A stretch of 64,000 nt of DNA from a virus (IMGVR_UViG_3300042474_001633:32001-96000), one strand, 5' to 3'. Shown: positions 3,409-45,451, counted from the stretch's first letter. Notes: generated by a model not told the origin, from the sequence alone. Made by a program: numbers and translations.

Positions 3409-3998
3409 AAAACACTCCGAATTCCTGTCACTGTCCAGAACGTGGACACTGTGTATCTTATCCCATCGGTAACCGTATTGACTCCATGGATAAAGTTTAT
3501 GTCGCCGGGGAAAATTATCAGCATGTTTCTGACTGGTTTTGCTGTGAATGATTGAATCGGGAAAAATATTTCTCCTCCTTTGAAATCATTATTGAGATAA
3601 AATACTGACGATAGGTCGTATGTTGGACAACAGTTTTTGCTTCCATCAAGTTCCTGTTTATCGGCATGTGGTGCTTGCTCATCACCAACTTGCCATCTAT
3701 TTAGCTGAGCTCCAGTTGAGTCGGCCAAAATGTCAAACGTAGTTTGAAGTATGTTTTTCGTTTTGATATATAGATTTTCGTAAATGTTCTTCGCTATAGG
3801 CTCAGTAAAATCTCTATGTACCCTGTCGGACCATTGATGATGGCCGTATACGGCAGACCAATCGTCATTACACTTTGCATAGCGAAGCAATTCTGCGAGC
3901 TCATCGGTCGGTAGTAAATTTTCAAAAATGTGTATATTGTCCACAGAATCACCCCAATACCCAGAGGGGGTTAGCTCAATTCTGGTGCTGTAATTCAT
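3405..3998 (-). CDS. 2OG-Fe(II) oxygenase (P4H-like)
   Basis: PHADK, FYLNNDFKGGEI, IHGV...GIRY. Start moved to ATG 3998 to reduce overlap with the upstream gene. Confidence 0.88.
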   Translation of the reverse strand: MNYSTRIELTPSGYWGDSVDNIHIFENLLPTDELAELLRYAKCNDDWSAVYGHHQWSDRVHRDFTEPIAKNIYENLYIKTKNILQTTFDILADSTGAQLNRWQVGDEQAPHADKQELDGSKNCCPTYDLSSVFYLNNDFKGGEIFFPIQSFTAKPVRNMLIIFPGDINFIHGVNTVTDGIRYTVSTFWTVTGIRSVL

Positions 3999-4491
3999 AA
4001 TTAACTGATGGGTTTTTTGTTTCGCTGCCATAAACAAAACATGTCAACATATACCTAGTTCCACTAGAAACAGTGCTGACCAGGTGTGGCTCATCACCGG
4101 CATGAACAACCAATTGTGATGCAGATGGTCGCCAAACAGTGTTAAGACGCGGGTACACGAGGTCCCCACCCTCAAAGTTATCATTCAGATATACAACGCA
4201 TCCGAATCTGCATGTCTTCTGATAGTTGTCAGTGTGTTCTCCCATTCCACCACCCTGGGAGATTCTTTGTATTCCACAAAATGGGCTTATAAAATCATAA
4301 TCATCAAAATATAATTTAATTCGCTCATTTAACAAATCAAATATTGGTGATTGAAATGGGAATCTATTGCCAACCCAATATTCCCCACCACCATTTTGTA
4401 TTGACCAATCACTGCTACTCGCAGAATATGCGGTGCAGAGCAACTCAAGTCTTTCGTCTTCAGTTAGAAAAGAGTCGATGTGTAAAAGCAT
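3976..4491 (-). CDS. 2OG-Fe(II) oxygenase (P4H-like)
   Basis: EHTDN, VYLNDNFEGGDL, PHLV...GTRY. Confidence 0.88.
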   Translation of the reverse strand: MLLHIDSFLTEDERLELLCTAYSASSSDWSIQNGGGEYWVGNRFPFQSPIFDLLNERIKLYFDDYDFISPFCGIQRISQGGGMGEHTDNYQKTCRFGCVVYLNDNFEGGDLVYPRLNTVWRPSASQLVVHAGDEPHLVSTVSSGTRYMLTCFVYGSETKNPSVNYELQHQN

Positions 4492-4512
4492 GTATGGAAC
4501 CGCATTCCACTA

Positions 4513-4758
4513 TCACCACTTGTTTAGTGGGCAAACTGCAGTATTGAGTTTTGTCTTTAATGACATGAAGCAGCCACACTCTTTGCATTGTTTTGTCAAC
4601 TTAATTAATTTTGGGCACGCTTCGCAAATCTGCATTCTAGTACTGGCAATTTCGTCTGTTGTGTAATTTGACTTATCCAACAAGTCGGTTGGCAATACCT
4701 TTGCCCCATTTTGTAATTGCATTTGTCTTCTTTTTTTGAATTCCTCGTAGGCGGTCAT
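4513..4758 (-). CDS. Small Cys-rich protein (DUF6171-like)
   Basis: RMQICEACP...QCKECGCFM...KTKL...CPLNKW. Confidence 0.6.
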   Translation of the reverse strand: MTAYEEFKKRRQMQLQNGAKVLPTDLLDKSNYTTDEIASTRMQICEACPKLIKLTKQCKECGCFMSLKTKLNTAVCPLNKW

Positions 4759-5225
4759 TATGTCACTGCTCCTGGTTCGTTGAATTTTTTAACATATTTA
4801 TTCGCAAAATTAGCGCTTGCCAGTGTCACAGTAGTGTCTGACCATGATTTTTTGTAGTCAAAGTCTTCTGTTTCTTCGTTTTCAAGAATGTAGTCAGCAA
4901 CTTTTGTTCCTATTCCTTGTCGTTGGTGGTCTGGGTGAACATCAAAAATAAAGGGTTTATATATATTTTGTTCTTCGTTATAGTATCTAGCTACTACACA
5001 AAGAAGTTGTCCATCTTCTCCTCGATACAGGAAGGTTTCTACATTTATTTCATTATTGTGACCGAAAATATTGGGGAATCTTGCTGGAAGTATTTGTTTA
5101 GAGAAGCCTGGGGTGCCAAATTCCCCAAATTTTGCTTCAAAGAAAGACCATGTAGTGAAAAAACTTTCCTCTGTTCTTTCTATAGTTGGCAGCAAATCTT
5201 GCCATGATGCATTTTTTTTAATCAT
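4758..5225 (-). CDS. GNAT-family acetyltransferase
   Basis: Acetyl-CoA binding motif A: VHPDHQRQGIGT. Confidence 0.75.
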   Translation of the reverse strand: MIKKNASWQDLLPTIERTEESFFTTWSFFEAKFGEFGTPGFSKQILPARFPNIFGHNNEINVETFLYRGEDGQLLCVVARYYNEEQNIYKPFIFDVHPDHQRQGIGTKVADYILENEETEDFDYKKSWSDTTVTLASANFANKYVKKFNEPGAVT

Positions 5226-5282
5226 AAGTCAATCATTCGCTCCCATCTTTTTTGTGTCGTATATTTTTATTCACCGACCACA

Positions 5283-5984
5283 TTATAGGCATCCTTCCTC
5301 GCCATTTCCCTTGATGTCAATGCATCCTGAACCGCTGCCACCGCCACAGGAGGCACAGTTGCCGGTCGGTGGAAAACTGGGCGTTGGAAAACTGGGCGTT
5401 GGAAAACTGGGGGTTGGAAAACTGGGGGTTGGTGCCACATAGCCACAGCAACCATTTCTAAGCGCTCCGTAATACCCACCCTCATAACCCGGACAACCTT
5501 GACACCAGTATTCATATGAAGTCTCGCCGGAGCAAGTATATCCGCAGCCATCGCCGTCAACACACCCGGCGTTACCGCCGCAACTCCTCGAGCAGTTGCT
5601 GGATGGCGGGTCTCCGGTTGGATACCCAGGGGGTGGACAGCTTGCTGGCGGGAAGGAAGGCGCTGGCGGGAAAGAAGGAGCTGGCGCCGCCGGTGTGGCC
5701 GAGTTGGATGCAGTTGATACAGCGCTCACCCCGTATCCAGTAACCGTGGTGACCGTAAATGTGTAAGCAGTTCCATTGCTTAAACCAGTCACCGTTATGG
5801 GCGAACTAGAACCACTTCCCGTAAAACCTCCGGGGGATGAAGTTGCCACATAGGTTGCAACACCTTTACCGTCGTATGCTGGAAGAGTAAAAGAAACAGT
5901 TGCTTGACCGTTGCCCGCACTAGCCGAAACAGATGTCGGCGCATCAGAGAACTTTCCCTGACTAGAAGTATTTCCCGGTATCAT
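5283..5984 (-). CDS. Fibronectin type III protein with Pro-rich (PSFP) repeats and a Cys-rich C-terminus; probable virion fibre or decoration protein
   Basis: Fn3 signature APTSVSASAGNGQATVSFT...ITVTGLSNGTAYTFTVT. Six PSFP units and many Cys. Coupled to the upstream fibre gene by an ATGA overlap. Confidence 0.75.
   Translation of the reverse strand: MIPGNTSSQGKFSDAPTSVSASAGNGQATVSFTLPAYDGKGVATYVATSSPGGFTGSGSSSPITVTGLSNGTAYTFTVTTVTGYGVSAVSTASNSATPAAPAPSFPPAPSFPPASCPPPGYPTGDPPSSNCSRSCGGNAGCVDGDGCGYTCSGETSYEYWCQGCPGYEGGYYGALRNGCCGYVAPTPSFPTPSFPTPSFPTPSFPPTGNCASCGGGSGSGCIDIKGNGEEGCL
5371..5430 (-). repeat. Tandem 15-bp coding repeat x4 (encodes TPSFP)
   Basis: GGAAAACTGGG(C/G)GTT repeated four times on the plus strand. 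A related 18-bp unit (APSFPP) occurs about twice near 5645-5686. Confidence 0.95.
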
Positions 5985-7042
5985 GAAGCACTCAAGTCAC
6001 CCATCAACATCCAGGTGTTCGCCGCGGCGCACTTCAGCAAAGTTGCCGATGAATATTGTGCACGTAAGTAGGCGCCAGGAGTTGAATAAAGTATTACTGA
6101 CCCCGAGGCACCAACAATTTGCGTCTTGCCTGTTCCGTATTGAATAATATGAATCTGTGCGCCTTCAGGGAAGGTAACTGTTGAGTCAAGAGGAACGGTA
6201 ACAGTATTTGCGGTGCTTGTTATGTTCATTTTAATGAACTTGTTCTTGTCTGTGAGTTGAAGTGTGTAGTTTCCTGTTTTGATGTCAATAGTCGCATCAG
6301 CCAATTTACCTAAGCCAATTGCAGCGGTTGTGCTGATGTCTGCATCGACAATGGTTTGATTAGCAATCATTGTTGATGTAACAGTTCCGCTATCTCCAGC
6401 AGTAATTGCTGTTCCAGAAATCTTGGTCTTGTCAATCGCTGCAGATGCATTTATATCTGCGTCGACTATTTTACCTGGCCCAATCTCAACGACGCCAGAA
6501 GAGTCGATTGTCACATCTCCAGAAATTGTTGTATAGGTAGGGGTTCCAGAACTGTTGGCTATTACAACCTGTGCTGCGGTTCCGGAAGCAATCTTACTTA
6601 ATGCTATCGCTGCATTGTTTGCAACGTCAGCATTGGTAATCGTTGAATCAAGAATTGCCACAGAAGTAATTCCAGTTAAAACCCAGTTGTTTGTTTCGCG
6701 CTTAACCAACTGTGCTTTTTGCCATGCAGAAGTCAAAGAGGTTATTCCTCCAGTTGCTTCGATTGTCACTCCAGTGTCACCAAAAATCTGCACCGTTGCA
6801 GAAGAACTGCTAATTATCTCAAGCACATCGCCAAGACTGAAGGCAACGGATGAGTTGGTCGGTATCGTTACGGTCGTTCCACCAGCATTTTGGAACTCAA
6901 GAAGCTGACCACGGTCTTCAAGAACGGCCGTGTATGTCGCCGCGGTAACTATTTTTCTCGTATAGTTAAAATCGCTTGCCTGCAGCGCATTCATTGCGCC
7001 GGCCGTCAACGTCTGTCCAGCTGTAAATTGTTGAATAGCCAT
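5981..7042 (-). CDS. Tail fibre-like protein with a duplicated beta domain
   Basis: N-terminal FTAGQTLTAGAMN. Two homologous YT...D...VTxP...F..G..I.I modules. Repeated I.DADI..A.I..SKI units. Confidence 0.7.
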   Translation of the reverse strand: MAIQQFTAGQTLTAGAMNALQASDFNYTRKIVTAATYTAVLEDRGQLLEFQNAGGTTVTIPTNSSVAFSLGDVLEIISSSSATVQIFGDTGVTIEATGGITSLTSAWQKAQLVKRETNNWVLTGITSVAILDSTITNADVANNAAIALSKIASGTAAQVVIANSSGTPTYTTISGDVTIDSSGVVEIGPGKIVDADINASAAIDKTKISGTAITAGDSGTVTSTMIANQTIVDADISTTAAIGLGKLADATIDIKTGNYTLQLTDKNKFIKMNITSTANTVTVPLDSTVTFPEGAQIHIIQYGTGKTQIVGASGSVILYSTPGAYLRAQYSSATLLKCAAANTWMLMGDLSAS

Positions 7043-23804: not shown

Positions 23805-24155
23805 CTAAACCTGGGCGCGGACATTGGCGTTGAGGGTTCGCAAGGCATCAATACTCGTCCTGAGTGAAAGAAGTTTTTCTCGCTTTGCCCTAACTAGTGC
23901 TTCCGCGATTTCGTAATCCTCTTTCATTTGTTCCATCTTGTAATGAGACCATTGCTCTCTGTCGGTGATTGTTCTGTGCCCCTTGCCAGCAGCTCCTAGA
24001 TATTCTTTTGCCCATTCCGCCTTGTACCTGGCGTCTTTTTTTGCAGCGTCCACGGCGAGTATTTCAAAGTTTTCAGTTTCTTTTTCGAGCAGGTCGAGCA
24101 GTCTCATCATTTCTCGTTCAATGTCCACCTGGCTGATTGGTTGACTTCTATTCAT
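23805..24155 (-). CDS. Hypothetical coiled-coil protein
   Basis: 116 aa helical protein overlapping the RuvC-like gene. Confidence 0.65.
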   Translation of the reverse strand: MNRSQPISQVDIEREMMRLLDLLEKETENFEILAVDAAKKDARYKAEWAKEYLGAAGKGHRTITDREQWSHYKMEQMKEDYEIAEALVRAKREKLLSLRTSIDALRTLNANVRAQV

Positions 24156-24678
24156 TTTCTATCCCTTCGAGTGGGGACCAGTCTATCTTCTCTAGCGCCG
24201 AGAGAGAAATGTTTGACCACTTATATTTTGCATTTCCAATTTTTGCCAAAACCATTTCTTCAAGAACCCACGCATCGCACATATCATCAGCATGCCCCCC
24301 TTTCCAAACTATTCCCGTAATAGCTGATATTGCAGATATGACTTCTGACTTGCCAGCGTTCCCTTTGCCTGTGGCAAATTTTGCTCGACAAGTAGGAGGC
24401 ACGATTATGTATGGAATATCAAGATTTAGCAAGGCAACCCTGACAACACCGCCAAGCTCCCCAATTGAGTGAGCCTGAGAATTTCTTGATGCAAAAGAAT
24501 AACCCTCTATGGCTACCAATTGTATTTTGTTGGAAACCGCAATATTGCCAATTTCGCTGGCTATTTTCCTCAATCTTTCAGCTCCAGATAAATCAAAAGA
24601 AAGATAACCAGCTTCTCCAGCATGGCAATACCCAGTGGATGTAAGTGATAGGTCGAGACCTAGGATGTTCATGGGCAC
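24148..24678 (-). CDS. ruvC: RuvC-like Holliday junction resolvase
   Basis: ILGLDLSLTSTG, VAIEGY, FATGKGNAGK, DDMCDA catalytic motifs. Confidence 0.85.
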   Translation of the reverse strand: MPMNILGLDLSLTSTGYCHAGEAGYLSFDLSGAERLRKIASEIGNIAVSNKIQLVAIEGYSFASRNSQAHSIGELGGVVRVALLNLDIPYIIVPPTCRAKFATGKGNAGKSEVISAISAITGIVWKGGHADDMCDAWVLEEMVLAKIGNAKYKWSNISLSALEKIDWSPLEGIENE

Positions 24679-24694
24679 GCAAAACTCTACCCCA

Positions 24695-24728
24695 CAAACA
24701 AAGACCCGCCGGGTGTAATCCCGACGGG
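24695..24728 (-). terminator. Intrinsic terminator
   Basis: CCCGUCGGG-AUUACA-CCCGGCGGG stem with one U-G pair, followed by UCUUUGUUUG. Confidence 0.7.
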
Positions 24729-24823
24729 AATTAACACAGACAGACGTCCATGTCTACTTTGCGTAGTTATTCACCACTAGACCTTGGACCACCTGCCTTT
24801 CTTTTCTCAGAAACGGCTGTAAG
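24695..24823 (-). ncRNA. Putative small RNA B, complementary to the 16S rRNA 3' end
   Basis: -10 TACTCT at 24834-24829. AGAAAGGCAGGUGGUCCA at 24802-24785 pairs with 16S UGGAUCACCUCCUUUCU. Terminator hairpin at 24728-24705. Confidence 0.55.
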
Positions 24824-24881
24824 ACCTTAGAGTACCATTACAAAATTATTAGCTCAGGTAAAGAGATGTTGGCGCGCACAT

Positions 24882-24941
24882 AAAAAAAGAGACGCAAGAA
24901 CCGGGGGCTGCACGTTGCCCTGTGCCCCCGGCCCTCGCGCC
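24882..24941 (-). terminator. Long GC-rich hairpin plus U tract
   Basis: GGCGCGAGGGCCGGGGG pairs with CCCCCGGUUCUUGCGUC, then UCUUUUUUU. Confidence 0.8.
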
Positions 24942-24959
24942 TATAACGGTCCTAAGGAT
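24882..24959 (-). ncRNA. Putative small RNA A, antisense to 23S rRNA helix 69
   Basis: -10 TAGAAT at 24969-24964. 5' segment CCUUAGGACCGUUAUAG (24957-24941). A 17-bp stem closes only on the minus strand via G-U pairs, followed by a U7 tract. Confidence 0.65.
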
Positions 24960-25009
24960 ATTAATTCTACAACTGAAATGTCTTTCGTGTTGTAAACGCA
25001 AGTAATGTT

Positions 25010-25312
25010 TTAACGTTCCCAGCCGTGCTTGGCTAAACCTAAATCAAAAGCAAGCTGCGGATAGTTTCCAATTCGATTGTGACATGGCCTGCATACCGCA
25101 AGAAGATTTTCCTCATCGAGTATCGACCCACCCTGAGAGCGTCTAATTATTTCGTGAATGTCGCAACTTCTGTTACGAACATATGTCAACTTCTCGTCAT
25201 GTTCAGCAAATACAGGACACGCTTCGCAAAATGGTTTTTTTGACAAAAGTTTTTCTACGAGCGGGCGCCTCAGCAAATACTCTTCTTGTTTCTTTTTTGA
25301 ACGATATTTCAC
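25010..25312 (-). CDS. HNH endonuclease-like protein
   Basis: CEAC...DIHEIIRRSQGGS...NLLAVCRPCH. Confidence 0.8.
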   Translation of the reverse strand: MKYRSKKKQEEYLLRRPLVEKLLSKKPFCEACPVFAEHDEKLTYVRNRSCDIHEIIRRSQGGSILDEENLLAVCRPCHNRIGNYPQLAFDLGLAKHGWER

Positions 25313-31636: not shown

Positions 31637-31720
31637 CTTTACTAAAACTCGAGAATAGTTTCGCCAGAACTGTCTCATAATTGTTTATCATTGGATAAAC
31701 ACTATGGAAAGCGCCACAAC

Positions 31721-34336
31721 ATGAGCAATATTGCCAATGACTTTACTGAAACTCAATACAAAGCGATTCCTGGGCAAATCAACACGATTGAATCAAAGGG
31801 AATAGTTGAGTGTTTTGTTGCGGGCATTGGCAATAAGGACAGCGTAGGGGACATATGCCTACCTGGTTGCTTCAATGGCTCTCTTGGACGACGCAAGCCT
31901 CGCGTTGTATGGGGCCACAACTGGAACGAACCAATTGGAAAAGTTCTTGAAATTTACGAAGTTGGACCAAACGACCCACGTCTTCCAGCGAAGATGAAAG
32001 CCAATGGTATTGGTGGTTTGTTTGCCAAAGTACAGTTCAACCTTGCTTCAGAGCGTGGTCGCGAAGCATTTGCAAACGTAAAATTTTTTGGTGAAGAGCA
32101 AGAGTGGTCAATTGGCTACAAGACTTTGGACGCAGTATTCGACACAACAAAGCAAGCCAACATGCTCAAAGAAGTTGAACTATACGAAGTCAGCCCTGTA
32201 TTGCATGGAGCAAATCAGCTCACAGGAACAATTTCAATCAAGTCAGATAAGCAAAACGAAGAAGTCAAGGGCGGACCTTGTTGGGATGGCTACAAGCAAG
32301 TTGGGATGAAGAGGGGCAAGAATGGAAATATGGTTCCAAACTGTGTTCCCATTGAGGAAAAAGGAGAAAAGCTCAGGGACCCAAAGGGCGGCCTTACTGC
32401 TGCTGGTCGCGCACACTTCAAGCGCACGGAAGGGGCAAATCTGAAGCCAGGAGTTAAGGGAGCAGCAAATACGCCAGAAAAAATGCGCAGAAAAGGTTCT
32501 TTCCTAACTCGCTTCTTCACTAATCCATCTGGACCAATGAAGGATGAAAAGGGTCGCCCAACACGCCTTGCGCTTTCTGCAGCCGCATGGGGTGAGCCGG
32601 TGCCACAGGATACTTCTGATGCAGCAAAACTCGCAGCGAAAGGACGTCGCATGCTTGAGCGTTATGAGAATTCAAAGAAGAAGTCGAGTGAGGTTGAGAT
32701 TGAAGAAAAAAATATTTCAATCTATTCCATCGCGAACCCATCCGAAAATCCAACAATGGGAAGAATGGGTTCAATCGCAAAGGCAATTTCAACTCACTTT
32801 GGTGGTGAAGTCGCTGTCCGCGAAGCAGACAGCAACAACGTCGTGTTTGACCTCATGAAAGACGGAATGGTTGAGACAATGCGCGCTGCGTACCACACAC
32901 AAAATGAGTCAGATTTTATGTTTGGCCCAGCCCAAAAGGTTAGAGTCGAAACGATTTATCTTCCAGTTGATTCAAACGGAGAAACATCCGGAGCACCAAT
33001 ACCAAAAAGCCCGAACATGCTCGCCGCGCCAAAGCCGGGAGGGTGCGGATGTGGCGGAGCGTGCGGTGGAAAGTCTGACCCATTTTCAAGTTGGGAAGAG
33101 TTCAAGAACGACAACCCGGGTGTCCATCTTTTCATCAAGACAGAAAACATGGAGATGTACGAAGTAGCGAACAACGTTTCCGAGTATCACGGTTTTGACA
33201 TTGAGCTACTCGCCGATGGATTTGTTGTTCCAAACATCGATTGGTATGAAAAAGACGCGCGAGATGCTGTGATAACAGCAATTGAGAACGTTGAACAAAA
33301 GGCCATTGCAAGAGCCGCGCGCAGCGCTCGTGGTGTTGGTCGTTCGGCAAGAAGAATGGTTAATCCATCAGAGTTCGATGGAGATGGTGACGGATTCAGA
33401 ACTGGGCGCGATGGCAGGGACAATGTTCCATACAAGAAGCCAAAGGCACCAAAGATGATGCCACCACGAACCGTTCCTCAAGAAATTCCAGAACGAGAAG
33501 AAAAACCACTTAGAATCCCTAAGCCAAACGAAATCCCTCGGCCGGCACCAGCACCACAGCCGGCTCCCGCACCAGCTCCCGCTCCGTCGGTCCCACAGAG
33601 AGTTCCGGAAAGACCCGGAATTCCCGCAACCATTACGGGTCGCACAAGAGGAGCTTCTGCCCTGAGGGCCGGAAAACTGGATTCCGCTATTTACAAGGAA
33701 AGAATGGCTGGAGCCTCCCTTGAGGATGTAGCAAAAAAATACGGTGTTGAAAGAATTGACGTTCGTCGAGCCGAACAGCGCCATATGCAAAAAATGAGGG
33801 CCGCAAAACAGAAACGTTCATCAATCCTGCAACAACTAAGAGACATGCAGGACGACCCGAGCATGCCTTCTGGTGTGCCGGAGAGGGCTAAAGAACGAGC
33901 CATATCCATGATTGCAGAGCAAAACAGTATGACGCCTGCTGGCGTTCGCAGGGCCATCAGAAGAGAGCTCGCTGCAGAAAGAATGACTCAAGCAGCAAAT
34001 CAAATGAGAGGCAGAAGAAAGTCTCTTTCCTCTGTCTATGTTTCGGTGTCTGAAGGTAACGACATATCCGTTAAAACTGCCCTGCAAAGCACGGTTGACG
34101 ACTCGGTACTTATCAAGGTTGAGCCCCAATTCGTATCGCAAGTAAAACAAGCGGTTGACACTGTTGCCGAATACCACGGCGTGCGTATTTCTCGTGCCGA
34201 AAATGGAATTAACGTATTCGGAGCGCATGAATTGAATGACGACTCGATTGAGGCTATTTCTCGCGCGATATATGCGTCGTATGTGGATAGCAATATTGAA
34301 GACATCGAAATGGACAGAATTTTCTCGAAGAGATAA
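31721..34336 (+). CDS. HK97-type prohead protease with a long multidomain C-terminal extension
   Basis: GNKDSVGD, WGHNW..PIGK, EWSIGY, LYEVSPVLHGAN in the first ~175 aa. Then small basic modules, a Pro-rich linker and an HTH. Confidence 0.9.
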   Translation: MSNIANDFTETQYKAIPGQINTIESKGIVECFVAGIGNKDSVGDICLPGCFNGSLGRRKPRVVWGHNWNEPIGKVLEIYEVGPNDPRLPAKMKANGIGGLFAKVQFNLASERGREAFANVKFFGEEQEWSIGYKTLDAVFDTTKQANMLKEVELYEVSPVLHGANQLTGTISIKSDKQNEEVKGGPCWDGYKQVGMKRGKNGNMVPNCVPIEEKGEKLRDPKGGLTAAGRAHFKRTEGANLKPGVKGAANTPEKMRRKGSFLTRFFTNPSGPMKDEKGRPTRLALSAAAWGEPVPQDTSDAAKLAAKGRRMLERYENSKKKSSEVEIEEKNISIYSIANPSENPTMGRMGSIAKAISTHFGGEVAVREADSNNVVFDLMKDGMVETMRAAYHTQNESDFMFGPAQKVRVETIYLPVDSNGETSGAPIPKSPNMLAAPKPGGCGCGGACGGKSDPFSSWEEFKNDNPGVHLFIKTENMEMYEVANNVSEYHGFDIELLADGFVVPNIDWYEKDARDAVITAIENVEQKAIARAARSARGVGRSARRMVNPSEFDGDGDGFRTGRDGRDNVPYKKPKAPKMMPPRTVPQEIPEREEKPLRIPKPNEIPRPAPAPQPAPAPAPAPSVPQRVPERPGIPATITGRTRGASALRAGKLDSAIYKERMAGASLEDVAKKYGVERIDVRRAEQRHMQKMRAAKQKRSSILQQLRDMQDDPSMPSGVPERAKERAISMIAEQNSMTPAGVRRAIRRELAAERMTQAANQMRGRRKSLSSVYVSVSEGNDISVKTALQSTVDDSVLIKVEPQFVSQVKQAVDTVAEYHGVRISRAENGINVFGAHELNDDSIEAISRAIYASYVDSNIEDIEMDRIFSKR

Positions 34337-36283: not shown

Positions 36284-39200
36284 GTGGCTAATTCATATTC
36301 CAATTTCGCAGAACGCAGGATAAACAACCTGTCCAAGAATGGCGAATTAGAAATAGGTTTCATTCCCAAAATAGAGACCAAGGCCGAAAAACCAGAAGTA
36401 AATAAGCCTCCAGTAAAATATTCAAACCCGTATGAAGAATACATAAAGACATGGGAGCCGGGGGACGTAATACCGCTTGTTCCACCAGGCAAGAGAATGC
36501 ATTTTTGCACTTTCAACCCAAATATGCTGGATACAGATTCAACATTTTTTAGGTCAACACACAAACATTCCTCTCCGACGAAATTTAAATCGGGTGAACT
36601 GAATGACATCGAGTACAAGGTCCTTGGAAGGAAACTAAAGGACAGCCTTGACTCGCTACTGCGAAGAGCAGCCAAAACAAGAGGCTTATGGGTTGACGAT
36701 AAAAACAAGCTTCGCTGCCCTCCGGGAACACCAGCTGCAAACCAATTTACAGACATAACTGGCTCTAACTGCTTCATACCGTCACCAAGAACTGCCGCAC
36801 AAAGTGGAGCTCGTGCAGTGCGTAGAGCAACAGCTGGCGCAACCCAGATGTCAACCCAGGTTGGCGGAAGAGTTGCTAGTGGATTCGATGCAGCTAGAGC
36901 AAACGCTGAACAAATTAGAGAACTTGGTTTTGAAAGAGTTCAAGAAGCAATGGGGTACGGTGGCAGAATTGCGCCCACTCCACAAATGGTTAGCGATACA
37001 GTCTCGGGAGCCATGAGGGCTACGAGGTTTGGTCTCATACCAAACCCTTCAGCGAGAACTGGAGGCAAGCAGCGTGGAGCACCGAAGGGCGTCGGCAACA
37101 ATGTGTGGCAGCTTGGATTAAAAGAACAAGTCTGGAGAGGCAGAAGAGCCACCGAACTTGCTCGCTCCACAAGGGATAGATTTAATAACCCAAACCGACC
37201 AGACGGACTAAGACTCCCACCGAGTCAGAACTTCCCGGCCGGTAGACCAATCGGCGACATAAGCCAAAAGGCTCAATTCGTTTCCGCAATGGCCGAACTA
37301 TTTCCAAACGTTCCACAAGCAGAAATAGAAGAAATGTTTGACCAAGCAATTCCAATGAGCTTGAGCAGGATGGAAAGGTCAAAACTGAAGGCATCTTTGA
37401 TTCAATACTGGTACTCCTGGATGGAAAATGCAATTGCAAATCCAGAGCAGGCAAAATGGGTTACCTCTTTCGCGATAGATACGGAAATGGGGTCAGCGTT
37501 CGAAGTTAGATTTGATGCATTTGCTCCCTCGCCTTCAACGGGAGGAAGAAGAATTAGCCAAGCAGCATCAAACGCGGCTCAGGGAAGAACCGCAGAACAG
37601 GGTGGACTTCAGTTCTCCCTTGTTATGAATCCATGGGAAATGTGGTCACAGGTAAATCGCTCGGGCTTTGACAGAAATGGTCGAGCAAATGGAGTCGCTG
37701 ATTCTGTTGAGGGTGACATGCACTATTTGGCCAACCATGAGTGGGGCCACGTTGCGCACTTCTCGAGTGTTATGGAGACACTTGGATTCCAAACGCAAAA
37801 TCTTCAGAGATATCCGCTTGCACAAACACTCGTAAAACCACAGCAGGGTGGTCCCCAGTGGCAAAGACAGAAACAAGTCAATGCATGGATGATTGACTTT
37901 AGGCAAGCTGCGAATCCAACAGGAAACAGAAGTATTCAGCTGTTAATCGACTCAGCAAACAATCTAAGCAGAAGGCAATATATTCGCTCTGGAAGTTGGG
38001 GAGGTTCGACCGGGTACACAAGGCAAGACCTGGAGACCGATTTAAACAATTTTCATAATGCGCTAGCTGAGGCAATTGAAAACAACATCACCGATGATGC
38101 TGACGACCAGGAGTTGATGAGACAGTTTTCTGGTGGTGTTTATGCGGCAACATCAAACATAGAAGCCCGCGCAGAGTTCTTCGCATCCCGAAGATTGTTT
38201 GGAGACCCGGTACTAACAGGTGGGCAAACAGGAATCCCATCCACGGTTGATGAGTTCGCGCGAACAATGGCTTCAGCCCAGGGAGCCACACGGACGCAGG
38301 CACAATACCGTTCCCAGATGGACGACATTGGACAGAATGTTTTTAGTGTTCCTGGAAACGCATGGAATATTAGTGGTCGCATGGCTGGTTCTGGATTGCC
38401 ACAACAAAGGCCAACACTTAAAACACAGGCCGTCAGAAGAGCTGTAGACCAAAACTATCCACGAAGCAATAGAAATAGGAGTTCCTCGGCTATTACTGGA
38501 GCAATGAGGTCATCCTCATTACAGCAGAGAACCACTTCTTCTCGTGACTGGAAAAATCAAGACACGATAAGTTCAATAAACACAAACAGGCCATTCACCG
38601 AAGAGCGTCAATCGCTGCCGGGAATGCTGCAATCAGCATTGGGAACTCAGCAATCATCTACACCAATCGTTGGAAGGATGTCCCCGCTGGTGCCAACAAC
38701 GGTCACGGGTGTTAGGAATCGTTTCGATGGCAGCAGGTCTGGTGATGTCGACATCAAGGTCCACGAAATAAACGGCGAAAAAATAGTATTTGATAATCCC
38801 GACGCAATATCAATCGATGACTCATCAATAAAAATTATTCCTAAAAACCCATTTGAGATAACCGGAAAATCCAGAACCAGTAAGGAAGGTCGCGAATATT
38901 CAGAGAAGTGGCTCAATGCCCATCTAGGCAAAGGAGACATGGATTCGAATGATGTCGACGCCCTTCTGTATCGAGCATCACGCGGTGACACGGAGGCAGC
39001 AAAGGAATTCGATGGTTTAGCGGAAAAAGGAAGCAAGCGAGTCTCTGAAGCAGAAGGAAAATTGTATGAACCCATCGAACTTGATGAATACCAGGAAAGA
39101 ACAATAACCCGAGCTGGTCTTGAGGATTTGAGCCTAGATGACTTGTATGTTGTACATGAAACAAGTTACGAGCCAGAAATTGATGAAAATGGAGACATAA

Positions 39201-42200
39201 GCATCTCTCCTCGTTCTAACTTTGAGGAAACAACTGAATCCGGAAAGAAGGTAAGGGTTCCTCGCCACACGATTCACTTCGCATTAAATCACCTTGTTGG
39301 TGGACATATATTTAGGCAGCGCTCAGAAAAAGATACGACTATCTTAATAGCGCCACTGTCTCAGGTGCTAAGAGACAATCCAGATTCACTCGACAATCTA
39401 TATACGCTTGATACTGTTCTTACACCAAAACCTGGTGAGGGGATAAAGCTCAAATCAGGAAGCTTCCGAAGACTCACTGGTACACCAGACAAAGAAGCAA
39501 CAGAAGAGGCTGTTCGTCAGCAGCTAAACGAAATGGGTGCAACAAAGATTTTTAAAGCAGAATCAGCAGAGTCTTCAACTGACGCACAGGATTTAGCAGT
39601 CGGCAAAATAGCCAGGCAGCTGAGAACCCAATCGGGATTGCACGCAAACATCCCAAGCGGACAGGTCGAGCAGTATTTGATTCGCCAGGCTGGAAGTGGT
39701 GGTAGCGCTGAAGTGACGCTTCCGCCTAGTTGGGTGGCCGGAATGAGCAAAAACCATCGCCAAAGACTTGGTGATTCAAACTTCTGGAGCGATGCGAAAC
39801 CAGCCCCAATCACCGGCTTTATGAGAAGCGGCTCGACCCCACAAGCAGGACAGAGCAGAATCAAGAAAAACAAAGACGGTGTGCCTCAGTACCCACGGAC
39901 GCCAACCTACGGTCCAATGCTCGGTGAAACAGAAAATATTTTTGCTGGAGTTAATTCTTGGGAAGAATTTAAACAGAGATATAATGACCAGGAAATAGTC
40001 TTTCTTGATTATGAAACAACTGGTTTAGTATTCGACAAATATGGTCGCGCTACGGAAAACGGAAATCCGGTAGAAATAGGCGCAATAAAAGTAAAAAACG
40101 GACAAGTAATAGACAGATTCAACACATTTGTCAATCCGGGAAAGCCTCTGCAGCAATGGTCTAAAGACAACTTGCGCGACGCAGACGGAAACCCCCTCAC
40201 TGACCAATACCTACAGGGGGCTGAGTCTTTGGAGTCTGGGCACAAAAAACTTGTTGAATTTGCTGGACCAAATGCAATTATGGGTGTTCAAAACGCCGCA
40301 TACGACAAGAACGTACTTGAAGACACTCTCCGTGAAGCGGGAATTGAATGGCAAGCAAGGGGCTGGATTGACCTCAAAGATATGGCCGGCATGACACTCC
40401 CAAGGTACACAGATGAAAATCCGGATGGACCACATAAGACAAATAAAGATGGAACAAAATCACCATCCAATGGACTTGCGGACATAACAAGATACCTCGG
40501 GGTCCCTCTTGGCAAAGAGCATCATAGAGCAGACAAAGACGCTGAAGCAACAGCGGAATCAATGCGTCTTTTGATTGATGGTGCAATTGAAAAGAATTGG
40601 TCAAAAGACGCTCTGGATAGAGCCAAGCGAAGTGCGTACGTCAAAAAAACACAAGACGATTTTGACTCAGATGTAAAAGAATGGGAGTCCGAGCTTGCAA
40701 AGTACTTAGGTGATGGAGTGTCGGGAAAGATGTCGTCATCACCTGCTTTGCGCTCTGCTCCACAGTTTGGCAGAAGACAGTCTCGTGAGTTCTATAGCTC
40801 GGTACCAAACAGTAAATTATGGAGACCGGAAACTCTCGAGCAAAGCGAACCATCACGAATTGCGAAAAGACAAGAAATAATCAAAGACATCAAAGGATTC
40901 ATAGAGTCTGGCGATGGCGACGCAAAATACATGTCTGCAATGAATGGACTTGACCCAGAATTTGCTAACTACATGCGCAATACCGAAGACCGCGAGATTC
41001 TGGCAGACCTTCGTCAGGCAGCAGTTGAATTTCATGCTGGCATCGACCAGAGACCACGTCTAAACGTAAACACTGCAGAACTTTCGAGCTTAATGGAAAA
41101 TGGGCTACGAAGAGACGATTCAGGCAAACCGCGACGTCTGTCAGAGAGAGTAAAAGCCTACGAAGCAGACATTGGAATTTCTCCAGACCTTCCCGACGCA
41201 GAACGCCCAATAACTGGATACATGGTGCATTCCGATGGCGACTTCGCTGAACAAGAGGCTTCATTTAGGGAGTTTTCTAATAAAGTTGATGTCAATTCTC
41301 CACGTTATAAGTTTGACCTTTTTAAGTCAAGTAACGAAAATCGCAACAATGGTTTCAATTCTATTTTTGGTGATGCTGAAATAATTCTAAAACCAGAAAC
41401 CGGCCAAAGGACAGCTTACGGCAACGGTGACGCCCTTGATAATCACATATTTCCTGTCCTGGCAAACTCAACAGATTCTGACGAAATAGGTCGCGCACTC
41501 ATTGACCCTAACGGAAGATTTGACGAACGTGAATCAAATTCCATCGAACTTCTCTATGGAAAATTTAAAAATGATTTCAATGCCTACAGAAAAGATAACG
41601 GTCAAACTCGTCCACGGATAAGCGGAGCATGGGGAAATAGGGACGCCCTGATTATGGGCGGAATAGAGCCGAGTGATATCGAAGAGGTGAGGGTTCCGTT
41701 TAATTCTCTAGATATTACAAACTCAACCACGCCGGAAGAATTTGCAAAAAAACCAAGAGAACTTAAGTACTTACCCGTTACTGAGTATGTAGACGAAGGC
41801 CCTGCGATTGCTTCCTCCGGCGCAGGAGCACCACCGCCGCCACCACCGCCAGATGACCCTGACAACAACATGACAGACGAAGAAATTTCTAAAATTCAAG
41901 AAAAAATGAAACGGAGTTTTGCGGCCACAAAAGAAGAGCAAAAAATAATCGAAGATATTTTGTCTGGGTTAGAGCCAATTAATGCGATACCCAAAAATTT
42001 AGCCATACGAATTGACAACGTTAACGAATACAGGAAAATCTCAGACGACTTTAGAAATCTAAGAAGAATTGAAGAAGCCGAAAGACTTCAGAGATTAGCG
42101 AAAGCAAGAGGTTTTAATCTTGCAGTAACCAATGACTACGGATTGGACGTATTTGATGGGCGCTCATTCTCAAGTAAGGCTCCCAAGTCAAAAACATCAA

Positions 42201-42364
42201 AAGAAGTTATTGAGGCAAAAATAGACAAGCAGATAGAAGAACTTGTTGAGTCAATGCGTCAGGCAAAGTTCAAAAACATTAAAAATATTTCTGACTCCAG
42301 AAGCAGACTGGAAAAGATACAGGAAGAGTTTGATAAACTCACAGACGGCAGGAATGAAAAGTGA
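36284..42364 (+). CDS. Giant multidomain (polyvalent) protein: zincin metallopeptidase, unknown domain, DEDDh exonuclease, DUF3626-like domain
   Basis: 2026 aa. HEWGH at 37736. FLDYETTG/QNAAYD/HHRADKD. RPITGY...FGDAEIILK...RTAYGNGD. Confidence 0.8.
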   Translation: MANSYSNFAERRINNLSKNGELEIGFIPKIETKAEKPEVNKPPVKYSNPYEEYIKTWEPGDVIPLVPPGKRMHFCTFNPNMLDTDSTFFRSTHKHSSPTKFKSGELNDIEYKVLGRKLKDSLDSLLRRAAKTRGLWVDDKNKLRCPPGTPAANQFTDITGSNCFIPSPRTAAQSGARAVRRATAGATQMSTQVGGRVASGFDAARANAEQIRELGFERVQEAMGYGGRIAPTPQMVSDTVSGAMRATRFGLIPNPSARTGGKQRGAPKGVGNNVWQLGLKEQVWRGRRATELARSTRDRFNNPNRPDGLRLPPSQNFPAGRPIGDISQKAQFVSAMAELFPNVPQAEIEEMFDQAIPMSLSRMERSKLKASLIQYWYSWMENAIANPEQAKWVTSFAIDTEMGSAFEVRFDAFAPSPSTGGRRISQAASNAAQGRTAEQGGLQFSLVMNPWEMWSQVNRSGFDRNGRANGVADSVEGDMHYLANHEWGHVAHFSSVMETLGFQTQNLQRYPLAQTLVKPQQGGPQWQRQKQVNAWMIDFRQAANPTGNRSIQLLIDSANNLSRRQYIRSGSWGGSTGYTRQDLETDLNNFHNALAEAIENNITDDADDQELMRQFSGGVYAATSNIEARAEFFASRRLFGDPVLTGGQTGIPSTVDEFARTMASAQGATRTQAQYRSQMDDIGQNVFSVPGNAWNISGRMAGSGLPQQRPTLKTQAVRRAVDQNYPRSNRNRSSSAITGAMRSSSLQQRTTSSRDWKNQDTISSINTNRPFTEERQSLPGMLQSALGTQQSSTPIVGRMSPLVPTTVTGVRNRFDGSRSGDVDIKVHEINGEKIVFDNPDAISIDDSSIKIIPKNPFEITGKSRTSKEGREYSEKWLNAHLGKGDMDSNDVDALLYRASRGDTEAAKEFDGLAEKGSKRVSEAEGKLYEPIELDEYQERTITRAGLEDLSLDDLYVVHETSYEPEIDENGDISISPRSNFEETTESGKKVRVPRHTIHFALNHLVGGHIFRQRSEKDTTILIAPLSQVLRDNPDSLDNLYTLDTVLTPKPGEGIKLKSGSFRRLTGTPDKEATEEAVRQQLNEMGATKIFKAESAESSTDAQDLAVGKIARQLRTQSGLHANIPSGQVEQYLIRQAGSGGSAEVTLPPSWVAGMSKNHRQRLGDSNFWSDAKPAPITGFMRSGSTPQAGQSRIKKNKDGVPQYPRTPTYGPMLGETENIFAGVNSWEEFKQRYNDQEIVFLDYETTGLVFDKYGRATENGNPVEIGAIKVKNGQVIDRFNTFVNPGKPLQQWSKDNLRDADGNPLTDQYLQGAESLESGHKKLVEFAGPNAIMGVQNAAYDKNVLEDTLREAGIEWQARGWIDLKDMAGMTLPRYTDENPDGPHKTNKDGTKSPSNGLADITRYLGVPLGKEHHRADKDAEATAESMRLLIDGAIEKNWSKDALDRAKRSAYVKKTQDDFDSDVKEWESELAKYLGDGVSGKMSSSPALRSAPQFGRRQSREFYSSVPNSKLWRPETLEQSEPSRIAKRQEIIKDIKGFIESGDGDAKYMSAMNGLDPEFANYMRNTEDREILADLRQAAVEFHAGIDQRPRLNVNTAELSSLMENGLRRDDSGKPRRLSERVKAYEADIGISPDLPDAERPITGYMVHSDGDFAEQEASFREFSNKVDVNSPRYKFDLFKSSNENRNNGFNSIFGDAEIILKPETGQRTAYGNGDALDNHIFPVLANSTDSDEIGRALIDPNGRFDERESNSIELLYGKFKNDFNAYRKDNGQTRPRISGAWGNRDALIMGGIEPSDIEEVRVPFNSLDITNSTTPEEFAKKPRELKYLPVTEYVDEGPAIASSGAGAPPPPPPPDDPDNNMTDEEISKIQEKMKRSFAATKEEQKIIEDILSGLEPINAIPKNLAIRIDNVNEYRKISDDFRNLRRIEEAERLQRLAKARGFNLAVTNDYGLDVFDGRSFSSKAPKSKTSKEVIEAKIDKQIEELVESMRQAKFKNIKNISDSRSRLEKIQEEFDKLTDGRNEK

Positions 42365-43422: not shown

Positions 43423-45451
43423 TTGCTGCCCGTCCCAGGAGATTGTAAAAGTTAGACATATTTCTCCGTCTTTCGCACTATCTAGAACTAACCTTTTTAC
43501 AGCGCCAATTTATTCTGTCAACGAAAGAAAATCAATTATTGATTTCAAATGCGCAATGCAGCGCAGAGGCGTAAAAAGTGCTTACGAAATAAAAGTCGGA
43601 GCGACTGGCTCGGACAGCAGAATTCTTCAATCTCTCCAGGGACTTGGTTCTGCCGTTACTCCGGGAAACTTTTCCAACGTGCGAAGTCCTGTTAGGTCAC
43701 GAATTTACTCAGCTCTCACCCCGGGTGGTGGTCGAGGAGTTCCTGGTGGATTTGGCGCACTCAAGCCAGAGCGTGGATATAGATGTCCAGAAGGGTATCA
43801 ATTCGGTGGAAGATTTACTGACTCACGTTTTTCTACATGTGGAAAACAACTATTCGACCTTCCTGGAATCATAGGCGCAACAATCGCCTCTGTTTTGCGT
43901 GGCTCTCGTCGTAGCCCATCCTTCCAGGATGTCGGTGGCACACGTGTTAAGCCAGTGTCTGTGGCTGGTGACGTAATCCAGTCGCGCGCGCCACAAATTC
44001 CAAAAGTTACTGGTGCTAACAGACAGCGCAGAAATCGCTCCGTCGATGACATAGTCGGACAGATGTCGCAGGTAAATGAAGCCTACATGAGAATGGTGCG
44101 GCGCGACGGCTTCATCTTGGAGCCGGTAGTTTCTCCTGCAGTTCTTAGGACAATCCCCGACAACAGAGATATGGAAGGCGCAACATTCCTGATGAATGCT
44201 TTGACGTCGGATTCAATTGGTGGAGAAGAACTTGGAATGCTTTCGAATACCGGCATTGAAAAACTATCCTATGTCCTATCTGGAGGTTCAACTGTTTCCA
44301 TCGGGAAAGCTCGCCCGCTAACAGTTGGAGAACGACGCAAGCTTGGTAGAACTGTGGCCACGGCGGAGAAGCTGCGTGCCAATGATGACCCGGTTCAAAA
44401 ATTAAAATTCATCGCAGAGGAAATGGGCGATGGAATATCTTATGAAGAAGAGTTTAAAGGAATAAAAAACCCGAATGAAATCATTAAAGTCAACCTCCCA
44501 GCAGGTGCTGGCAAGCGAACAATGCGCAGGTGGCATTATGAGACTTTCTATCGAAAGAAAAAGAAGTCAAAGCAGTCCGCTCGCTCCACAGAGCTAGAAG
44601 CAATTCCCGAAGACGATAAAATCAAAGACCTTGCTTCTGCGGTCCGTCACCTTAATAATGGTGGTTCGATTGAGAATATTTCATCGAATGTTCGGTCGGA
44701 GGCTGTCAGTCGTAGCGCAATGTACAAGACTGGAAAAATACGAAACGGTGTATTGATTCACGAGCGTGCCGATGGACAAACGGTGTTTGAAATAACACCT
44801 GATGAGAACTTTGAACATCTGGGTGCCGCACTGGCATCAGAACTACAGCGCTCAATGGGTCTTATTGCGCCAAAGGTTCGTTTGGCTGGTGCTGGAAAAA
44901 AGCGCAACTATATGCTTGGAGAAGCTCAGGATGCAGAAATGTTTGGCGTTCAAGATAGGACAATGGACATTGCTGACCTCCCCTCGGAGGACGTTGTCGG
45001 AATTCTAATGTCCGACTATCTCACCGATACCAGGGATAGAAACCCTTCCACGATTGCGCCAATACGCGTCGGTGGCAGAATGCGTGCAGTTGCTTCTTTG
45101 AATGGAAGTGCTGGTCTCTCGGGTATGACCTCGACGGAAATACGCGGAAGACGACAAATGCAAGTAAACGATTTCTTCAAGAAAAAGCAGCAGAGAATAT
45201 ACGCTGAATATTTTGAAAAACTTCAGGCCCAGCAGCGCAAGAGGGCGTTAATGCTATTTGATAAGCTGCTCGAACAAGCAGGAGAATTTGATTTTAAGCG
45301 ATTTAGACAAATGCTCTCAATAGATGGACAGCTTTCTGAAGCAGAATTACTACATCTTGGGATTGTCGAAAAAATATTTGAACAGCGTGTCAACATACTT
45401 AAATCATCATCTGGAAATTTCAAGAAACTGATTGGCTTATCGATTAGATGA
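43400..45451 (+). CDS. Multidomain protein with a C-terminal HipA/PI3K-like kinase fold
   Basis: EHLGAALASEL..MGLIAPKVRL and DYLTDTRDRNPST. Carries the shared RCP leader motif. Confidence 0.6.
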   Translation: MRTILSSDCCPSQEIVKVRHISPSFALSRTNLFTAPIYSVNERKSIIDFKCAMQRRGVKSAYEIKVGATGSDSRILQSLQGLGSAVTPGNFSNVRSPVRSRIYSALTPGGGRGVPGGFGALKPERGYRCPEGYQFGGRFTDSRFSTCGKQLFDLPGIIGATIASVLRGSRRSPSFQDVGGTRVKPVSVAGDVIQSRAPQIPKVTGANRQRRNRSVDDIVGQMSQVNEAYMRMVRRDGFILEPVVSPAVLRTIPDNRDMEGATFLMNALTSDSIGGEELGMLSNTGIEKLSYVLSGGSTVSIGKARPLTVGERRKLGRTVATAEKLRANDDPVQKLKFIAEEMGDGISYEEEFKGIKNPNEIIKVNLPAGAGKRTMRRWHYETFYRKKKKSKQSARSTELEAIPEDDKIKDLASAVRHLNNGGSIENISSNVRSEAVSRSAMYKTGKIRNGVLIHERADGQTVFEITPDENFEHLGAALASELQRSMGLIAPKVRLAGAGKKRNYMLGEAQDAEMFGVQDRTMDIADLPSEDVVGILMSDYLTDTRDRNPSTIAPIRVGGRMRAVASLNGSAGLSGMTSTEIRGRRQMQVNDFFKKKQQRIYAEYFEKLQAQQRKRALMLFDKLLEQAGEFDFKRFRQMLSIDGQLSEAELLHLGIVEKIFEQRVNILKSSSGNFKKLIGLSIR

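Follow-up and report, generated by a model that had tools for sequence, protein, structure and literature searches.

The HNH-RuvC gap and its putative small RNAs

The window, i.e. the whole stretch of DNA that we analysed, spans 64,000 nt and corresponds to bases 32001-96000 of a 160,282-bp IMG/VR virus record. The genes at the locus all lie on the minus strand, in the order large terminase, Rad52-like annealing protein, PD-(D/E)XK exonuclease, a 191-aa protein, HNH endonuclease (100 aa, 25312..25010), a gap of 331 nt, RuvC-like resolvase (176 aa, 24678..24148), ParB-like protein and tail genes, including the tail sheath. The gap (24679-25009) holds two putative small-RNA genes on the same strand, which we call E1 and E2.

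E1 is preceded by a -10-like promoter hexamer, TAGAAT (24964..24969, minus), identified from the sequence and matched by a TANNNT box in most members of its family. Six nucleotides further on, on the minus strand, begins a 17-nt segment, CCUUAGGACCGUUAUAG (24941..24957, minus; the plus strand reads CTATAACGGTCCTAAGG), which is complementary to 23S rRNA and occurs only once in the entire virus record. The hexamer is predicted to set the start of transcription at about 24958-24957. A good -35 box is absent upstream of it and a sigma-70 scan of the window found no full -35/-10 promoter; a promoter of its own is attributed to E1 by the consensus only. Poor -35 boxes are usual in actinobacterial promoters. 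The 17-mer is followed, without any spacer, by a 17-bp hairpin (24892..24940, minus), found by folding and by covariation within the family. Its four G-U pairs make the hairpin specific to the minus strand, with a minimum free energy of -37.5 kcal/mol for 24940-24892 on that strand vs -26.1 kcal/mol on the plus strand. A U7 tract (24882..24888, minus) lies 3 nt (CUC) past the stem, and hairpin and tract together read as an intrinsic terminator in the window phage. The sum of these parts is a predicted small RNA of ~77 nt (24882..24958, minus), and in the folded 79-nt RNA the 5' segment is predicted to be essentially unpaired. An earlier note on this DNA had described the 17-mer, the 17-bp minus-strand stem with four G-U pairs, the U7 tract and the TAGAAT box, and sequence and folding agree with this anatomy throughout. 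It had also proposed a minus-strand RNA of ~78 nt with a free 5' end complementary to helix 69 (H69) and a 3' hairpin; comparison among phages lends support to such an RNA, at a predicted length of ~77 nt. A scan of metagenomes for short transcript-like contigs returned just three matches, all of them long DNA contigs.

The second small-RNA gene, E2 (~24697..24823, minus), has an extended -10 box, TGgTACTCT (24837-24829), and a terminator hairpin (24728-24705). Its conserved core, AGAAAGGcAGGUGGUCC, is complementary to the 3' end of 16S rRNA: AGAAAGG-linker-GGUGGUCC is predicted to be able to pair with this end, including the anti-SD, with one bulge, and GAAAGG..GGUGGUC is invariant. E2 also contains a small hairpin, GUCUAGUGG, then CCACGGCAA and a terminator-like helix, ACCCGCC/GGCGGGU, followed by UUUGCU. 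It has no conserved ORF and no Rfam match; its consensus alignment supports the terminator helix only, and its fold led to no identification. Among relatives, E2 is found alone, before E1 or after E1, and we see it as an associate of E1 rather than a part of it.

Downstream of both elements, RuvC starts at a GTG (24678), with a TAGAGT 5 nt upstream (window 24678-24692). In all relatives examined in this region (L003-L081), RuvC has a TANNNT box 5-7 nt ahead of its start codon, often inside GUAGUAGG, which suggests that the RuvC/late operon may be read from a leaderless message. A general preference of the phage for leaderless translation is made less likely by the enrichment of SD-like sites upstream of the phage's own genes (30% vs 9% in the background).

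The source of the window is a large freshwater myovirus, probably an actinophage. The phage genome carries two WhiB-family genes (G000:C1:142570-142761 and 111570-111767; 50.7 and 50.4 bits), and the same search over 14 well-known control genomes gave matches in Corynebacterium only. It also has five tRNA genes (Ile-TAT, Met, Arg-TCT, Asn, Thr) and promoter-like boxes of the -10-only type. Together with the leaderless-type start of RuvC, the WhiB genes, the tRNAs and these boxes point to an actinobacterial host.

The complementarity to 23S rRNA and its conservation

In L217, Rfam confirms a 23S gene (LSU_rRNA_bacteria, 3551-6486) to which the 17-mer is exactly complementary (match at 5499-5516), and the perfect 17-nt antisense match announced by the earlier note is thus real. 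It is also antisense to the 23S of a Flavobacteriales MAG and of a gammaproteobacterial MAG, and the target stretch is identical in the 23S of Klebsiella, Listeria, Staphylococcus, Salmonella and Acinetobacter records. We take the target to be C1914-G1930 in E. coli numbering, i.e. the loop and 3' strand of H69 plus the linker to H70; the pseudouridines that we place at 1911, 1915 and 1917 agree with the U positions of the target. All 17 pairs form in the duplex, with a predicted energy of -29.2 kcal/mol, and the phage genome offers no alternative target for the 17-mer. When the whole phage genome was compared with a real rrn operon, this match was the top hit (18 nt, E 0.01). Since the reversed operon used as a control still yields two 16-mers, the match in a single genome is barely above chance and is by itself weak evidence. 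What raises it above chance is its conservation across phages.

To follow the element without bias, 80 related viral loci were recruited by their RuvC-like protein alone, ignoring the RNA. E1 is present in 41 of them (31 distinct sequences), always between HNH and RuvC, in a context where the neighbouring proteins are 40-65% identical. Within this unbiased set the pairwise identity is 0.864 for the 17-mer, 0.61 for the 5' arm of the hairpin and ~0.39 for the 40 nt upstream of the 17-mer. This is the reverse of conserved flanks around a varying 17-mer, the pattern that the earlier note had named as speaking against its reading. The boundaries of the invariance of the 17-mer are also those of the 23S match. 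Variants at its positions 1 and 2 are C to U changes, which keep a wobble G-U pair with the target; this holds in both genomic settings in which the element occurs (see below). We rejected a 50-aa ORF (25001..24849) overlapping E1, given the identity of ~39% in the 40 nt upstream of the element and the compensatory nature of the changes in the stem.

The hairpin is itself maintained. In its alignment 93.5% of the cells are paired and both sides have changed in 16 of the 17 pairs; none of 500 shuffles equals the observed pairing and slid controls are 39-55% paired. The closing pair is G-U in 26 of the 31 sequences, which fixes the strand, and the hairpin adjoins the seed without spacer in all members. 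Of 76 distinct copies, 58 have a TANNNT box 6-7 nt ahead of the 17-mer, so that transcription would start at or next to the 17-mer. The 3' end is less regular. The earlier note's U7 tract stands for the window phage and does not extend to the family: a U-rich tail follows the hairpin in only 16 of the 76 distinct copies, the other 60 lacking a U tract. Hence, the 3' end is not always a terminator, and many copies of E1 may be read through into the downstream sequence.

The earlier note had also suggested a search of viral contigs for the 17-mer followed by a hairpin. Scans with an exact pattern found the core of the 17-mer in more than 117 viral contigs. Most loci after L081 were fetched in this way; their invariance exists by construction and we do not count it as evidence. 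In one genome from each of 185,579 prokaryote species there were 37 matches, all of them in coding sequences or rRNA variants and scoring at most 26 bits by the model, and none of these bacterial and archaeal genomes held a copy bearing the hairpin. E1 was found only in viral sequence. Rfam has no family for E1: the window gave no match at gathering score and only chance-level ones at E up to 10, and seven related loci gave no match for E1 or E2. Megablast and blastn against 50,697 phage records revealed no cultured relative of the E1 family (family A) or of families B, D and F, the only matches being to rRNA.

Conservation of the element does not imply that every phage keeps it. The closest relatives by RuvC identity (L003, L004, L006, L007) are without E1, and since it is absent from about half of the related phages it must be dispensable. 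The HNH-RuvC gap is in fact modular among L003-L081: it can be absent, or contain E1 or E2 alone, or the two together in either order, and in L029, L039, L040 and L080 the HNH stop abuts the RuvC start without any RNA. The distance between HNH and E1 ranges from 16 to ~1,400 nt in relatives; in the window, hairpin and U7 lie 53 nt past the HNH stop. The effects that the earlier note had proposed for the RNA, a block of subunit joining, an occlusion of enzymes that target H69 and the guiding of a phage enzyme, are conjecture. We found no support for the last of them, as relatives can have HNH and RuvC with no RNA between them, and the RNA also exists away from these genes. An omega-RNA of IscB/HEARO type or an sgRNA-like guide was likewise discarded: HNH and RuvC are separate small proteins here and Rfam gives no HEARO match.

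Some distant variants, CCUGAGGACCCAAAUAG, CCUGGGGAU-GGUAUAG and CCUUAGGCCCGCUGUGG, keep the hairpin and have largely lost the complementarity to 23S, the longest runs paired to it being of 6-13 nt. Among variant substitutions 15 break and 7 keep the pairing with 23S, which is not above the expectation from transition bias and is uninformative as a test. In one subgroup (L147:5385-5492, minus; also L136, L145, L149, L170, L198 and L200) the 17-mer is paired internally: GGACCGUUAUAG pairs with UGUAGCGGUCUU past the hairpin, and CCUU with an upstream AAGG. The result is a predicted helix of ~30 bp followed by U6, with a minimum free energy of -55.2 kcal/mol (z -7.65), which may represent a masked seed or a substrate of RNase III.

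Other settings and other putative RNAs antisense to the same region

The 17-mer is not confined to the HNH-RuvC gap. Ten contigs of 28-69 kb have it in a different, unrelated and podovirus-like neighbourhood, where small ORFs are numerous, a denV-like gene is present along with a PurM-like gene whose closest counterparts are those of pelagiphage podoviruses, and no matches to HNH or RuvC lie near the element. Here a small covarying 5' hairpin precedes the 17-mer and a different long hairpin follows it; the flanks differ as well. In three of these contigs (L129, L202, L284) as many as 28 nt are complementary to 23S, one of the pairs being G-U. The cultured pelagiphage relatives HTVC033P and 023Pt_psg01 do not have the element.

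A scan for an antisense stretch to the neighbouring part of 23S, AATTTCGCTAYCTTAGG, retrieved 40 viral contigs, a number that by itself proves nothing, as a rough estimate of the size of the collection allows some tens of chance matches. The matches nevertheless group into families in which the complementarity extends well past the pattern and lies just ahead of terminators, and just one match is plainly rRNA. Family C (13 contigs) has 31 nt complementary to 23S, with one G-U pair, and its own terminator. Families D and E combine 18-20 nt with a separate stretch of 11-13 nt complementary to a site farther along 23S, in the correct order, and end in a terminator hairpin and U tract. In family F, 18-20 nt are complementary to 23S and the element adjoins tRNA genes. 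Two single contigs have antisense fragments of 41 and 59 nt, whereas single-contig matches of 18-20 nt may be due to chance. Examples of families C-F can be seen at L254:11700-11900, L251:520-680, L255 (minus, ~4512-4528) and L250:940-1090.

These comparisons suggest that several phage lineages have arrived, by descent or independently, at small-RNA-like units antisense to the same region of 23S. Such recurrence is the strongest argument for pairing with 23S being the property under selection. It also raises a broader idea, that E1 belongs, as one of several families, to a larger class of "anti-ribosomal" RNAs of phages that has not been described so far. E2, directed to the 16S 3' end, and at least three other architectures from other phages, directed to H69-H71 of 23S, would be included, and all would disable or seize host subunits by pairing directly with rRNA at the subunit interface. 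We put this forward tentatively, as a serious possibility that falls slightly short of being probable. If true, it would amount to a protein-free takeover of host translation, and one workable across bacterial phyla since the 23S target is nearly universal.

One further match was rejected as an antisense element. It lies in Paenibacillus phage Pd_22F (L290:1290-1760; MZ092003.1, ~82.9-83.4 kb) and is a genuine fragment of a 23S gene, located in an unannotated gap; a serine recombinase gene lies ~1.2 kb away. The fragment may stem from host DNA at the junction of a prophage or from faulty assembly. In Pseudomonas phage PA5oct, simple patterns for an RNA complementary to 23S, of a different family, gave matches that did not exceed the control.

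Possible action on host ribosomes and alternative readings

We think it somewhat probable that E1 is an independently transcribed, trans-acting antisense RNA directed against host 23S rRNA at the subunit interface, likely acting on 23S that is not in 70S ribosomes. The phage would thus probably bind the ribosomal RNA of its host directly. The RNA would begin at or next to the 17-mer and present it as a single-stranded segment followed at once by a very stable hairpin. Comparison points to pairing with H69/H70 as the selected property, in the part of domain IV that contacts the 30S (bridge B2a). The partner would be nascent rRNA, a late pre-50S particle with H68-H71 undocked, or the free 50S, and the pairing would block either subunit maturation or the joining of the 30S, leaving fewer new host ribosomes. 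Since the hairpin comes directly after the seed, it could stack on the 17-bp duplex; one might speculate that the resulting helix of ~34 bp is cut by RNase III. E2 may act in an equivalent way on the 3' end of 16S. To our knowledge, actinobacteria are devoid of Hfq, and the long perfect seed of E1 fits such a host.

Several lines of evidence bear on the state of the target. H68-H71 dock late in 50S assembly. The m3-pseudouridine at 1915 is made only on 70S ribosomes and cannot pair with A, such as the A at position 16 of the seed, which favours immature 23S as the target. In actinobacteria, the toxin MazF-mt6 cuts helix/loop 70 of 23S in the free 50S and not in the 70S, while MazF-mt3 targets both the helix/loop 70 site and the anti-SD of 16S (PMC5408214). 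Both regions must therefore be exposed and vulnerable in free subunits, and the combination of E1 and E2 is suggestive because MazF-mt3 shares the target regions of the two. The growth of E. coli is inhibited by a peptide nucleic acid against H69 (PNA; Kulik et al. 2017, reviewed in PMC7038079), which shows that antisense at this helix can act on bacteria. Given the specificity of MazF-mt6, the late docking of H68-H71, the modification at 1915 and the effect of PNA, 23S outside 70S ribosomes would be the likeliest substrate. Whether a natural RNA could invade H69 and H70, which are folded in mature ribosomes, is uncertain. Since the phage's own genes use SD-like sites, the phage too would suffer from a general block of ribosomes.

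That the phage's own genes need ribosomes invites the opposite reading, in which E1, or the transcript carrying it where it has no terminator, is a positive tether that holds 50S or 70S particles near phage messages and boosts their translation, e.g. that of the RuvC/late operon. In many relatives E1 does lie 75-115 nt upstream of RuvC without a U tract, and the TANNNT box of RuvC in all relatives examined suggests a leaderless message downstream of E1. But a leaderless message from a -10 box placed downstream of E1 would exclude E1, the window phage has a strong terminator and the whole E2 gene between E1 and RuvC, the second genomic setting is without RuvC and families C-F have their own terminators. 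We therefore find the tether unlikely. Slightly less likely still is that the RNA serves as a shield or decoy, covering or competing for rRNA sites attacked by abortive-infection toxins such as MazF-type RNases. In favour of this are the probable actinobacterial host, the targets of MazF-mt3, which are precisely helix/loop 70 of 23S and the 16S anti-SD, and the restriction of MazF cleavage to single-stranded RNA (PMC5408214); moreover E2 covers the UCCUU of the 16S tail and the antisense stretch of family E covers the UUCCU site, those of B1, C, D, H and I reaching it part-way only. Against this, E1 itself covers 1914-1930 and leaves the cut site (1939-1943) outside, a ribosome duplexed in that region could not function anyway, and protection would require stoichiometry with all ribosomes. 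We rate just as low the chance that the true partner is another molecule (a protein, the E2 RNA via GGUGGUCC-AAGG, or a host mRNA), the 23S match of family A being incidental or ancestral. This would account for the distant variants that keep the hairpin and lose the complementarity, and for the L147-type segment that is paired internally; in addition, the invariant GGUGGUC of E2 can pair with GACCGUU of E1, and the variant of L035 suits E2 better than 23S. It would leave inexplicable the 28-31-nt extension or second 23S stretch seen in other lineages, and it is at odds with the coincidence between the boundaries of invariance and those of the 23S match. Pairing between E1 and E2, in particular, was rejected as the cause of conservation, as each is often found without the other and no consistent covariation links them.

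Two other readings do without pairing to rRNA and we give them very little credence, in equal measure. One is that the 17 bp shared with rDNA are a recognition or recombination site at the DNA level, for the adjacent HNH protein, an enzyme of I-CeuI type or integration into rrn operons. The HNH gene is immediately upstream, and the 17-mer is the core of the I-CeuI site; the full site is of 19-26 bp, with flanks that are absent at the element, where only 17 bp match and the sequences on either side differ from 23S. The G-U pairs and compensatory changes further indicate a constraint on the RNA of one strand, and the position of the promoter would have transcription begin with the 17-mer. Many relatives have HNH directly next to RuvC with no element in between, the element also exists without these genes, no integrase was seen near it and the bacterial genomes scanned contain no copy. 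The other reading takes the hairpin and U7, 53 nt after the HNH stop, as the plain terminator or 3' UTR of that gene and the 23S match as an accident, which a match of 17-18 nt only marginally beyond the reversed control would permit in a single genome. It does not accommodate a distance to HNH varying from 16 to ~1,400 nt, 60 of 76 copies without U tract, an unpaired 17-mer more conserved than the stem, or the existence of a second genomic setting and of other families.

If E1 is an RNA antisense to 23S, it resembles some known regulators. Among these are the trans-encoded small RNAs that base-pair through a 5' seed and end in a terminator hairpin, e.g. the enterobacterial RybB/OmrA type and the prophage-encoded DicF. 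E1 shares with them a short independent unit, a single-stranded seed that is its best-conserved part and a stable 3' hairpin (with a U tract in the window phage). It differs in its proposed target, rRNA instead of mRNA, in a fully complementary and invariant seed of 17 nt, in belonging to a lytic-type phage of a host group without Hfq and in the lack of a U tract in most members. Extended pairing with structured RNA is known from CopA/CopT and RNA I/RNA II, and pairing with rRNA from snoRNAs and the TURBS of caliciviruses. Yet the seeds of CopA and RNA I are exposed in loops and target RNA of their own replicon, while snoRNAs and TURBS are eukaryotic and depend on dedicated proteins or act in cis. 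MazF-mt3 and MazF-mt6 of Mycobacterium are close to E1 and E2 in their targets, 23S domain IV and for mt3 also the 16S anti-SD, and in their actinobacterial hosts; but they are host-encoded protein endoribonucleases that cut ~10 nt 3' of the E1 target (PMC5408214), whereas for E1, an RNA, no catalytic partner is known. The anti-H69 PNA is directed to the same helix as E1 and differs in being man-made, with a PNA backbone and a carrier peptide, and in covering the 5' strand and loop of H69 instead of 1914-1930 (Kulik et al. 2017, reviewed in PMC7038079). E1 would be a natural counterpart of such synthetic H69-directed antisense antibacterials.

In kind, then, E1 would be an antisense small RNA like others; the novelty would lie in what it is proposed to target, the functional core of the host ribosome, and in its repeated occurrence among phages. 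No phage RNA complementary to 23S, or pairing with any host rRNA, was found described in the literature searched, which left most subscription journals out of reach. Phages are known to seize host transcription, DNA and some translation factors. If E1 binds the bridge helix of 23S, an RNA of ~77 nt would add a new and very economical tool of takeover, independent of host range because its target is nearly universal. As the target sequence is identical in E. coli, the idea can be put to the test in standard strains, with no need to culture the phage or its host. It would also offer a handle on the means by which large phages that infect slow-growing freshwater bacteria divert the production of ribosomes or switch it off.

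Other features of the phage were noted within the window. After the portal and protease genes come three giant ORFs on the plus strand, at 36284-42364 (2026 aa), 45448-51837 (2129 aa) and 54675-63998 (>3108 aa); the 2129-aa ORF has no PHROG match and the 2026-aa ORF has only a stretch resembling a DNA polymerase exonuclease. The first 190 residues of an 881-aa protein (31691-34336, plus) match a head maturation protease and the remainder is largely unmatched, so that the protein may be a fusion of the protease with a scaffold or with the capsid.
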